Of a stretch of DNA of 64,000 nt, positions 54,001-57,000 are shown in pieces; within the stretch, counting starts at the first letter, position 1, and every line of letters starts with the position of its first letter. The stretch lies in NCBI RefSeq assembly GCF_013315695.1, contig NZ_CP054353.1; one strand, written 5' to 3'. Made by a program: the position numbers. This DNA is from Escherichia coli. Its GTDB lineage: Bacteria; Pseudomonadota; Gammaproteobacteria; Enterobacterales; Enterobacteriaceae.

Positions 54001-57000
54001 TGATGAATAAAAAATATGAACTGGTTGTTAAGGGGATAAATAATTACGGGGATAAGGTTACTGTTACTGTGAAGCCGGAAGGTGACGGGCAAGCGTCGCT
54101 GTTGTTGCCAGATGTGGCGATTAGTCTTGACCGTACTGAAGGTGCCACGCTGGAGTTTTACGAAGCTGAGGCGAAAAAGCAGGCGAAGCAGTTTTTCATG
54201 GATGTTGCTGCCGGGTTATGTGAATGGAACGAACCGTTGCCGGAAAAGCGCCCCGTAATTTTAGAGGCGCAGGATGTGTTGATAACCTACAAAGGAAAGC
54301 TACCGGGAAGAATTACTTGTTCTCTGAAGATGCCGCCGTCAACACTGCGGTCAGAAAAAGATGATGTTGAATCACGTATTGAAAAACTGGAGAGCTACGT
54401 CGTTGAGCTGAATAAGAAATGGTCGATATTGGTGCCTTCTGGCGATGAAAAGCAGTTTGCTGCGTTTGACGATTATTGTCGGAAAGTGATGAGCAGAAAT
54501 CTCGCAGAGTGTTTCAGTATTCATAATGATAATTTCAGTGAGCTGGAATGGGAGTGTAACCGGCCATCCTTTGTTGTATCCGGTGATGCTGGGAAAATAA
54601 CCATCTCAGAAAATGGGAAAGTAACACCTCCATCGCACCAGCACAGTGAGGAGCTCATTGAATTTGCCATTGATTACCTGAAGAACAATAAAAAGCAGGG
54701 GCTGATGAAGCGCGTTGGCCGTTGCATGGGATATCTTCAGGTAGCCGCTGAGATTGAAGCGCTGGCCAGTGGTGCTGATAAGGATGCAATTGTGCGGGAG
54801 GCTCTTCTTCGTGATTTTAATACTCCACCCTTTAAAAAAGTGCCGGCTTACTGGCTTCATCCGGGGCTGACTTATCTTAAAGTGCGTATTTAGTGGGCCA
54901 GGGACAGCGGCTGAATATTTAATATATCCATGAACACCAAAATCAAATACGGCCTGTCGGCTGCCGTTCTGGCGCTGATTGCCGCTGGTGCGCCTGCGCC
55001 TGACATTCTCGACCAGTTTCTGGATGAAAAGGAAGGCAACCACACCACAGCATACCGTGATGGTGCAGGTATCTGGACCATCTGCCGTGGTGCCATCATG
55101 GTGGATGGCAAACCTGTCGTTCCGGGCATGAAGTTGTCGAAGGAAAAATGCGACCAGGTTAACGCCATTGAGCGTGATAAAGCGCTGGCGTGGGTGGAGA
55201 AAAACATCAGAGTGCCGCTGACCGAACCCCAGAAAGCGGGGATCGCGTCATTCTGTCCGTACAACATTGGTCCCGGTAAGTGTTTCCCGTCGACGTTTTA
55301 TAAACGAATTAATGCAGGTGATCGCAGGGGAGCGTGTGAGGCGATTCGCTGGTGGATTAAGGACGGTGGCAGAGACTGCCGTATCCGCTCAAACAACTGT
55401 TATGGTCAGGTATCCCGTCGTGACCAGGAGAGCGCGCTGGCGTGCTGGGGAATCGACAGATAAGCAGAATATTTTGCTGAAAAATAAGGCATGGCCACGC
55501 GGGCGGATAACACGAAATCCTGCGAACTGGCGAAACGTAAGTGAATAAAAGTAAAAACCCCGTTTGTTGGCACCAAGCGGGGTTTTGTGTTTCTGACCTT
55601 GAGTAAGGCAAGGGAGAACATGGCGAAGTATAAACGAATTCTGTTGAGGTTGACTATGAAAAACGGCCTTGAACTGAAAGCGCCTGTAACTGATGACATC
55701 AGCAGAGCACTGGCTTTTGCCATTAAGTGGGTGGCGGTCGGTGTTGCTGTGTCCCCGATGCTGTATGGGCTGGCAAAACTGGTCATTGCGTTGAAATCAT
55801 GAAGGGAGGATTAAGCATGCCAGACAAACTCATAACGCTGGCGAAGATCCTCTGTGTAATTGTCGGCATTTCATTTTCACTAATGCTGGTTGCTCTTTTT
55901 CTTTCCATGGCCTGGATGATGTTGTCTTCGTCGGGGTTGCTGGGGTGAACATAAACCGAATGCTTTCCGCGTTTATCGTTATTCTGCTGGTGGCCTGTGG
56001 TGCGCTGTGGATGGCAACAGACCATTACCGTGATAACGCGATTACCTACAAAGCGCAGCGCGATAACAAAGCCAGTGAACTGAAGCTGGCGAACGCAACC
56101 ATTACTGATATGCAGGTGCGCCAGCGCGATGTTGCTGCGCTCGATGCAAAATACTCGAGGGAATTAGCCGATGCGAGAGCTGAAAATGAAACTCTTCGCG
56201 CTGACGTTGCCGCTGGTCGTAAGCGCCTGCGGATCAACGCCACCTGTCCAGGCTCCGTGCGTGAAGCCCCCACCACCTCCGGCGTGGATAATGCAACCGG
56301 CCCCCAACTGGCAGACACCGTTACACGGGATTATTTCACCCTCAGAGAGCGGCTGATGACGATGCACAAGCAACTGGAAGGGGCACAGGACTATATCCGC
56401 ACTCAGTGCCTGAAATAAGTTTTGTTGATGCGCCGTATCGTCGCTATATTCCCTCATTAACAGAGACCGCAGCCCGACAGGGAGACTCCTCTGCGCGAGT
56501 GTGCGGGGATAATTAAAAACGATGCTCACCGGGTTTTTACCGCGTTAATGATTCGCGGGTTTATCCCGGTGCGATGGTGGAAGAAACAGGAAGCTGTATT
56601 ACAGAAAGTGCTACTACTGTATCCCGATGCGATGTATGTAATGTGAGTCAGATAATGGCACAGGATGTGGTGATGTGGCAGTCTGGAACACAGGATATAT
56701 TGTCAGAATAAGACCCGTAGGAATAAAAATGAAAAGACGCCTTTTACTACTTTTTCTGTTATCTGTCCTGGCAGTGGGATGCTCGCAGCAAAAAGCTGAT
56801 GAGCCCCGGCAATTAGTGACGGTGTATCCACGATATCCGGAATATGCTGCAGCAAATTATATCAAGGGGCTGGTTGAGGTTAAGTTCGATATTGGTGCTG
56901 ATGGGACTGTGACACGGATCGTTTTTCTCCGCTCAGAGCCTCATAATTTGTTTCGTGATGAAGTGGTGAAGGCCATGGCGAAATGGCGATTTGAAAAGAA

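Follow-up and report, generated by a model that had tools for sequence, protein, structure and literature searches.

Two small membrane-protein genes behind a predicted terminator and a predicted Shine-Dalgarno-masking hairpin between the endolysin and Rz genes of an Escherichia coli lambdoid prophage

The segment between the endolysin gene R and the spanin gene Rz was analyzed in a 64,000-nucleotide (nt) stretch of Escherichia coli contig NZ_CP054353.1 (assembly GCF_013315695.1), hereafter the window. Searches against PHROG profiles identify it as the late region of a lambdoid prophage. In the textbook account, phages lyse Gram-negative hosts by means of a holin, an endolysin and a spanin. 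The window encodes a class II holin (53783-53998), a SAR-type endolysin R (54930-55463), an Rz i-spanin (plus strand, from GTG 55945 or ATG 55960 to 56418; phrog_13, E = 1.6e-73) and, embedded in Rz, an Rz1 protein (plus strand, 56171-56356; phrog_3198, E = 1.3e-29). The annotation of an identical chromosomal locus by the Prokaryotic Genome Annotation Pipeline (PGAP) agrees with this layout. Between R and Rz lie a spacer, two hairpins and two short open reading frames, ORF1 and ORF2, which PGAP labels ‘hypothetical protein’; both families are known only under that name. A preliminary description had reported a GC-rich hairpin with a T-tract, a 60-amino-acid (aa) frame with a basic N-terminus, one transmembrane helix and the Shine-Dalgarno (SD) sequence aagggag, and an all-hydrophobic 43-aa peptide with the SD gggagga. 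These features were recovered, with small corrections. The regulatory architecture of the segment is richer than that description recognized, and the second hairpin had gone unnoticed.

The product of ORF1 is predicted to be a small, tail-anchored protein of the inner membrane; the gene has two in-frame starts, and the shorter form has its own SD. The long form (55620-55802, plus strand, 60 aa) follows the SD AAGGGAG (55610-55616) and consists of a basic N-terminal extension, MAKYKRILLRLT, a family core and a C-terminal transmembrane helix. Hydropathy analysis places one helix at residues 38-56 (Kyte-Doolittle mean 1.88), with a net charge of +5 on its N-terminal flank; AlphaFold models helices at residues 3-16 and 22-59, the second with a predicted local distance difference test score of about 90. 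Among 18 distinct nucleotide versions, the ratio of nonsynonymous to synonymous polymorphism (pN/pS) is 0.26 in frame versus 0.95 and 3.0 in the other frames, and the variable sites are distributed 15/5/35 over the three codon positions. This substitution pattern clearly points to a coding gene under purifying selection.

The family to which ORF1 belongs is small but widespread. Its best profile is phrog_1115 (E = 2.6e-42, residues 1-60 on profile positions 8-67 of 67), and it also matches phrog_4493 and phrog_3246; all three are of unknown function. A profile search of 1.84 billion representatives returned 32 clusters, with members from Escherichia, Salmonella, Klebsiella aerogenes, Yersinia enterocolitica (over 1000 contigs) and Achromobacter. 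They share the core MKNGLE-x-AP...AFAI(K/R)-helix and end in ALKS or RWW, and the extension motif x-Y-K/R-R-x-L-x-R-L-T/S is kept as amino acids in distant members. ORF1 and ORF2 had no matches in Pfam, NCBIfam or PADLOC, the last search covering ORF1, both forms of ORF2 and the relative from GER2, with 0 families at E <= 1. The preliminary description had called for a small-protein homolog search; this places both frames in PHROGs of unknown function.

The short form of ORF1 (55656-55802, plus strand, 48 aa) begins at Met13, ATG 55656, behind an internal SD, GAGG (55646-55649). Met13 is near-invariant across the family. The stretch AAGTATAAACGAATTCTGTTGAGGTTGACTATGAAAAACGG is nearly invariant from E. 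coli through loci with no more than 40-55% identity in the ORF body, a conservation attributable in part to the internal ribosome-binding site (RBS). Of 20 distinct leader variants, 19 keep the arrangement TGAGG-N6-ATGAAAAA; the exception is the L058 type (13 loci), with TGAGA. Where arginine is encoded at the internal SD, the codon is the rare AGG in 18 of 19 variants and AGA in the L058 type (SD GAGA). Another locus, L093, retains GGAGG despite different amino acids at that place. We infer from these patterns that ORF1 yields two products, of 60 and 48 aa.

Upstream of ORF1, a hairpin with the form of an intrinsic terminator occupies 55554-55586, 3 nt earlier than the start first given for it (55557). 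It has a 13-bp stem, a 7-nt loop, an A-tract on its 5' side and a U-tract on its 3' side (AAAACCCCGTTTG-TTGGCAC-CAAGCGGGGTTTT, then the tail TTTTGTGTTT). Six of the 13 pairs are GC, the stem-loop alone folds at about -19 kcal/mol, and the leader 55548-55625 folds at -28.3 kcal/mol (z = -2.6 versus shuffles). The minus strand also folds, with a UUUUUACUUUUAU tail. All 18 sequence variants of the hairpin fold, at -12 to -24 kcal/mol. In an RNAalifold analysis of 15 diverged relatives, 8 of 12 predicted pairs stay paired through two-sided changes; a GC-rich stem-loop with a U-tract directly after it is thus conserved through compensatory change. The A-tract, GC hairpin and U-tract lie 45-105 nt 5' of the first start codon in every ORF1 relative examined, with a stem that varies in sequence and retains its pairing. 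They are present whatever gene precedes, be it an antirepressor gene (locus L090), a tail-fibre assembly gene (L093, L103) or a capsid gene (L101). Predicted structure and covariation together strongly suggest that the hairpin is a genuine intrinsic terminator, and it marks the 5' edge of a compact, recurrent ORF1 cassette.

Other identities for the hairpin were considered and set aside. It is not one of the known prophage small RNAs AgvB, AsxR, Pas, STnc100 or Esr41: Rfam gave only a chance-level match (rimP leader, E = 0.58), and the published location of those RNAs is the gap between the esterase or stx gene and the DUF1378 gene, not the R-Rz gap. A 5.5-kb scan found no sense-strand promoter between the hairpin and ORF1 or in the spacer. 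Hexamers chosen by eye, such as TTGGCA in the terminator loop, were rejected as they come without a usable -10.

The spacer itself (55464-55553, plus strand) runs from the endolysin stop codon to the terminator and contains a small hairpin with an 8-nt loop, GGAT-AACACGAA-ATCC (55505-55520), whose Salmonella counterpart is GGCGGAT...ATCCGCC. When the R-Rz segment was used as a 485-nt query, its spacer side (query positions 1-155) matched some 200 Shiga toxin (Stx) phage records at ~87%. The motif GGATAACAC(R)AAATCC reappears behind unrelated endolysins in Salmonella, and a terminator-like scan picks up the Salmonella version of the spacer. The ~90-nt spacer is kept in E. coli Stx phages and partly kept behind unrelated Salmonella endolysins. 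Together with the terminator, it shares the layout of a small RNA derived from a 3' untranslated region, and no Rfam family matches it. A 17-codon frame within the spacer (ATG 55488) was rejected as a gene, since the Sakai version ends after three codons.

Directly after the terminator, at 55587-55621 on the plus strand, the minimum free energy structure contains the second hairpin. Its inner stem pairs CCUUG (55597-55601) with CAAGG (55609-55613) around an N7 loop, and its outer stem pairs the terminator U-tract against GAGAACAU, which hides the SD and a portion of the AUG. Relatives carry CGUUA/UAACG or CCUAU/AUAGG at the position of the inner stem. In an alignment trimmed to begin at the element, which favours the structure somewhat, 96.8% of cells were paired, four of five pairs had changed on both sides and 0 of 500 shuffles did as well; slid controls had 21-60% of cells paired. 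The untrimmed MAFFT alignment holds the hairpin in one register for all but two sequences. The hairpin is accordingly described here as a predicted, covariation-supported structure that buries the SD and start codon of ORF1.

The order of leader elements is conserved: terminator, SD- and AUG-burying hairpin, then two in-frame ORF1 starts. In Salmonella and in GER2, the leader additionally contains an 8-codon ORF (ATG TGT AGG GAG GTG TAT TCC CTG TGA) whose stop overlaps the GTG start of ORF1 (L087, 2960-3003; L005, which is GER2, about 2640-2685). The same insert brings an AGGGA/UCCCU hairpin over the second SD. The corresponding 25-nt segment is deleted in the lineage of the window, so that the leader's SD would drive ORF1 directly.

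ORF2 (55817-55948, plus strand) encodes 43 aa with a single hydrophobic helix (Kyte-Doolittle mean 2.89) behind the SD GGGAGGA (55804-55810). PGAP extends it to 49 aa from ATG 55799, a start that is not conserved, in contrast to the 43-aa start; the 43-aa ATG form is retained in 79 of 80 IMG/VR loci. ORF2 matches phrog_4906, of unknown function (E = 4.1e-23, residues 3-43 on profile positions 9-49 of 49), and the sole holin-labelled match of the 49-aa form is at chance level (phrog_13249, E = 0.08). Its 16 in-frame nucleotide variants are all 132 nt (43 codons) long and differ by conservative substitutions. These features indicate that ORF2 is a second, independent gene for a predicted single-helix membrane peptide between ORF1 and Rz. 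Within it, a 33-nt core, GTCGGCATTTCATTTTCACTAATGCTGGTTGC (55829-55861; ORF2 codons 16-26), shows hardly any change, whether synonymous or not, with a single variable codon among the 16 variants, and is flanked by freely varying sequence; this invariance could reflect a strong constraint on the peptide, a signal at the nucleotide level or a joint left by recombination.

The only experimental trace found for either family concerns a homolog of ORF2. In the Stx2 phage Sp5 of E. coli O157:H7 Sakai, ECs_5707 belongs to the same family, is 72-75% identical and likewise lies directly before Rz; it is preceded by an antirepressor gene, not ORF1. Its peptide is the same as XECs191, which was among novel genes detected by ribosome profiling (RIBOseq) and predicted to be an inner-membrane protein with one helix (Hucker et al. 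2017, PMC5597208). In LB, XECs191 had a translatome value of 12.6 reads per kilobase per million mapped reads, a ribosomal coverage value of 0.43 and a coverage of 0.55 (PMC5597208), a signal that is weak but positive; the study assessed translation only. The preliminary description had held that a lack of ribosome-profiling signal would count against the small genes, and for ORF2 a signal, though weak, has been published. A literature search on small genes between R and Rz, on ECs_5707 and on transcription-start-site or antisense data for O104:H4 found nothing specific.

The junctions downstream of ORF1 are tight. The ORF1-ORF2 gap in the window is 14 nt, and the junctions leading to the spanin gene in the family have gaps of 1-5 nt or a GTGA overlap. 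The stop codon of ORF2 overlaps GTG 55945 in this way, so the overlap with the Rz start that was originally reported holds if Rz begins at this GTG and fails if it begins at ATG 55960, the start used by PGAP. The ancestral Rz start, ATG AAC CGN in relatives, is ATA AAC CGA here (ATA at 55951-55953), a state common to 54 of 80 related IMG/VR loci. With this ATG lost, Rz must start at GTG 55945 or ATG 55960. Many ORF1 relatives end ...CGN TGG TGG TGA-n-ATG, and their last codons would therefore form a GGUGGUGA SD for the spanin gene. The RWW C-terminus cannot be explained as an Rz SD alone, given that RWW and the stop codon are kept where a hairpin, not a spanin gene, comes next.

To assess prevalence, the 485-nt segment was searched at a coverage threshold of at least 80% in 5426 complete E. 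coli genomes, and it was present in 989 of them (about 18%). It is 100% identical in several E. coli chromosomes and occurs in isolated inducible phages (PhiR5_2 and the PhiR12 series). A scan with an alignment of window-like sequences recovered only near-identical E. coli loci. The Salmonella ORF1 unit was found in no deposited Salmonella phage. E. coli K-12 was rejected as a model, as Qin rrrQ and rzpQ abut there and the module is absent. More widely, ORF1-like genes are flanked by an endolysin gene and an i-spanin gene in about 11 of 17 synteny lineages, ending 1-20 nt before the spanin start. Their neighbours vary among endolysins of phrog_7, 873, 315 and 181 and i-spanins of phrog_13, 214 and 312, and the holins differ too.

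The two genes are separable. ORF1 has no accompanying ORF2 in Salmonella and numerous other lineages; ORF2, in turn, is found without ORF1 behind ANT or P22_AR_N antirepressor genes, including in Sp5. In PhiR5_1 the order of the frames is reversed and ORF1 is truncated. An obligate pair was therefore rejected, and with it the original premise of a co-transcribed pair, although within E. coli the ORF1 subtype of the window nearly always has ORF2 next to it. ORF1 cassettes also form tandem arrays in metagenomic lambda-like phages (L101, 2435-3403, directly after the major capsid gene; L102, 250-740). These contain two or three homologous units, each with its own terminator hairpin and SD hairpin together with one or two very small transmembrane ORFs that mostly end in RWW; this suggests that the cassette duplicates and moves as a unit.

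Tiny transmembrane ORFs of a third family, phrog_6632 (...WKF(I/L)L(I/V)WL...), were also observed directly before Rz (L004, 2624-2797; L006, 2406-2501 and 2769-2852; L101, 3305-3403). Several of its members end in IRWW, and its N-terminus, M-A-E-K-L-S-T, resembles M-S-D-K-L-I-T of ORF2. The region before Rz is a mosaic of at least three small-peptide families.

On the minus strand, a sigma-70 promoter-like site, TAGTCA-18-TATACT (55656-55627), points toward the terminator hairpin. Homologous sites occur in L112 (TTGTCA-18-TATACT), L106 (TGGTCA-18-TATAAT) and L087, with scores of 9-10 of 12. The four diverged loci thus combine the site with a bidirectional terminator, an association that is confounded with coding sequence and absent from L101 and L102. 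This raises the alternative that ORF1 is the toxin of a unit akin to type I toxin-antitoxin (TA) loci, with a small RNA antisense in cis as its gate. From a promoter on the minus strand, within ORF1 codons 3-12, an RNA of ~75-105 nt, and of roughly 75 nt from the site in the window, would be made; it would cross the SD, and in relatives the leader ORF, and end at the hairpin. This RNA would block translation of ORF1 and, by coupling, of the spanin until late mRNA outnumbers it. The hexamers TAGTCA, TTGTCA, TGGTCA or TAGACA followed after 18 nt by TATACT or TATAAT recur at the homologous place and are often the sole match in 1.2 kb. As read by eye, the Tyr codon TAT, which keeps A2 of the -10, is present in 12 of 13 lineages. 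The A-tract 5' of the hairpin is kept even in very distant units and would render the terminator bidirectional, in a neighbourhood of plus-strand genes only. On the other hand, the hexamers consist of conserved codons (K/N-Y-K, L-T-M) and overlap the internal RBS, so their conservation can be explained without a promoter. The site is missing from the distant arrays of L101 and L102, and with no sense promoter found, a lysogen would have no toxin mRNA to neutralize. On balance, we consider an antisense-gated toxin unlikely.

Comparison with type I TA loci leads to a similarly divided picture. As in hok/sok (mok), tisB/istR-1 and zorO/orzO, ORF1 encodes a small, hydrophobic product (48-60 aa, one helix) behind a sequestered SD, relatives show leader-ORF coupling, with the stop of the Salmonella and GER2 leader ORF overlapping the ORF1 GTG in a manner that recalls mok/hok, and a candidate antisense RNA gene ends at the upstream terminator. 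Unlike those loci, it is embedded in a phage late operon, has no detectable sense promoter and matches no relevant antitoxin or toxin RNA family in Rfam at E <= 1; its antisense RNA is a prediction, and its helix is C-terminal, in contrast to those of most type I toxins. The suggestion in the preliminary description of a type I toxin-like pair finds some echo, for ORF1, in the SD sequestration, the leader ORF and the minus-strand site facing a bidirectional terminator, and none in Rfam.

A holin/antiholin-like role had also been proposed. Dual-start holin/antiholin genes with an RBS stem-loop are exemplified by S107/S105 of lambda, with its sdi structure, and S71/S68 of phage 21. ORF1 resembles these S genes as a small membrane protein gene in a lysis cassette, with two in-frame starts, an RBS hairpin and a longer product carrying extra N-terminal positive charge. 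It has at least one transmembrane domain and two conserved starts, each with an SD, whose use is predicted and whose 12-codon spacing is atypical compared with the 2-3 codons of the S genes. It differs further in having one C-terminal helix and in lying in a cassette that already has its own class II holin. Neither product has the highly charged, hydrophilic C-terminal domain of holins: ORF1 ends ...VIALKS (IRWW in relatives) straight after its helix, and ORF2 ends SSSGLLG. Nor has either a described holin family homolog in Pfam or a PHROG holin match beyond chance level. The proposal is therefore retained for ORF1 alone, on the strength of cassette position, dual start and RBS hairpin; ORF1 has neither the topology of holins nor their charged C-terminal tail.

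The two predicted isoforms and the minus-strand site can be combined into one speculative model. The ORF1 cassette would be a self-contained, RNA-gated lysis timer in which a constitutive minus-strand small RNA, running from the first codons of ORF1 to the bidirectional hairpin, masks the RBS that the SD hairpin already buries, and the two isoforms act as a holin/antiholin-like pair on a generic membrane target. Synthesis of ORF1 and of the translationally coupled spanin would have to wait until there is more Q-dependent late mRNA than antisense RNA. We regard both the timer and this threshold behaviour as distinctly improbable.

Parallels are also found among accessory lysis genes. P1 lydB, lydC and lydD (PMC9025707) and the Mu gp25 releasin (PMC9239132) lie beside endolysin or spanin genes. 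Like these and P2 lysA, which are non-essential and modulate timing or endolysin release, ORF1 and ORF2 are membrane-protein genes inside lysis cassettes, and like P2 lysA they lie between an endolysin gene and an Rz-like gene. Unlike them, they show no homology and differ in size and topology, and none of the former has been reported with a leader combining a terminator, an SD hairpin and a dual start.

We therefore propose, with a probability of about 0.5, that ORF1 and ORF2 encode late-operon accessory inner-membrane proteins of the lysis module whose synthesis is coupled to spanin translation. Since no sense-strand promoter is detectable, they would be made only from the Q-antiterminated late transcript reading through the terminator. 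Passage of Q-modified polymerase through terminators is established lambdoid late-gene biology. Without Q, the terminator would keep ORF1, ORF2 and Rz/Rz1 silent, and in its presence the SD hairpin would throttle ORF1 translation. Ribosomes would pass from ORF1 across 14 nt to ORF2 and through the GTGA overlap to Rz by close or overlapping junctions; in relatives, the ORF1 end CGN TGG TGG TGA-n-ATG would supply the SD of the spanin gene. The accessory proteins would act in the inner membrane late in infection, probably tuning lysis timing or spanin supply. Their target is more probably something generic in the membrane or the host than a specific phage partner, since ORF1 does not co-vary with any particular partner family.

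Several observations weigh against this proposal. Terminator read-through and internal start use are both deduced from sequence, and the 17 synteny lineages are not independent events. Members of the ORF1 family occur outside lysis cassettes, after capsid (L101) or tail-fibre genes (L093, L103) and among tail, tape-measure or baseplate genes (L106 and L115, in the tail/baseplate region). The same R-Rz gap holds antirepressor genes in Sp5, PhiR5_1, L090 and L095-L098, and the site may simply tolerate insertions. For ORF2, pN/pS is 0.56 versus 0.71 and 1.23 in the alternative frames, there is no third-position excess, and three loci carry frameshifted copies. Finally, the XECs191 signal is low and derives from uninduced cultures and a multi-copy prophage region (PMC5597208).

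Some of these observations would follow if ORF1 and ORF2 were morons unrelated to lysis, of use to the lysogen or to the cell under infection, for instance through superinfection exclusion or a block to DNA entry like that exerted by HK97 gp15, and occupied the R-Rz position only because this junction tolerates insertions. The moron concept comes from the lambdoid phages HK97 and HK022, and gp15 of HK97 is an exclusion protein. Antirepressor genes in the same gap, relatives behind structural genes and in tandem arrays, the modular, hairpin-bounded unit and footprints from uninduced cells are all in line with this explanation. Like morons, the cassette is a small, self-contained unit found at several late-operon junctions, with an intrinsic terminator and a small membrane protein. 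Compared with the classical promoter-gene-terminator moron, its layout is reversed, with the terminator ahead of the gene and no detected promoter. Tolerance alone can also hardly explain the recurrence between non-homologous endolysins and spanins together with the stop/start coupling, and PADLOC gave no match. We therefore judge the moron explanation quite unlikely. A membrane-depolarization defence module, as first suggested, is disfavoured on the same grounds, namely the absence of PADLOC matches and of a detectable sense promoter and the location behind a terminator in a late operon.

The ORF2 statistics also bear on whether ORF2, and possibly the ORF1 peptide, has any protein function at all. 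The frames could instead be translated leaders that load ribosomes anew behind the terminator and deliver them to the Rz start, or recombination scars. The weak coding signal of ORF2, its near-invariant core and frameshifted copies, the high mosaicism of the region with the shuffled order in PhiR5_1, the possible need of Rz for the GTGA overlap after loss of its ATG in this lineage and the double use of the RWW codons as a spanin-gene SD would all fit. Conversely, purifying selection on ORF1 is clear, and conservation of its family extends from E. coli to Achromobacter. Across contexts, ORF2 retains its length, start and hydrophobicity and varies by conservative substitutions, and RWW is retained even with no spanin gene downstream. 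We hold this explanation to be very improbable.

Further features of the late region were recorded around the R-Rz segment. A 297-aa ORF (54000-54893, plus strand) sits between the holin and endolysin genes and matches phrog_1085, of unknown function, over its full length (residues 2-297 on profile positions 1-296 of 296, E = 1.5e-189). At the identical locus, PGAP annotates only its first third, as a truncated ‘YdfR family’ pseudogene; the frame looks like an intact extra lysis-cassette gene with no assigned function. Downstream of Rz, a 108-aa lipoprotein-like ORF (56729-57055, plus strand) starts MKRRLLLLFLLSVLAVGCSQ and has the position of lambda bor, but lies on the plus strand. PGAP names it ‘TonB family protein’ and phrog_1267 ‘Rz-like spanin’, the latter label being doubtful. 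The small RNA genes PasA/PasC and AgvB/AsxR of related prophages are located between the genes for the SASA esterase and DUF1378 (bioRxiv 10.64898/2026.05.13.724894; PMC4104026). The corresponding gap here (53090-53240) contains no Rfam family at E <= 1.

The recurrence of a dual-start membrane gene with a terminator and an SD-masking hairpin across four endolysin and three spanin families points to a portable accessory layer, so far unrecognized, in the control of lysis or of spanins. Sp5, in which the ORF2 family is represented, is a Stx2-converting phage, and the timing of its lysis matters for toxin release. The locus also exemplifies how regulatory structure can be hidden around genes of 40-60 codons annotated as hypothetical proteins. 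If the RNA-gated timer were true, the lysis cassettes of phages with Gram-negative hosts would have a fifth component, and a portable one.

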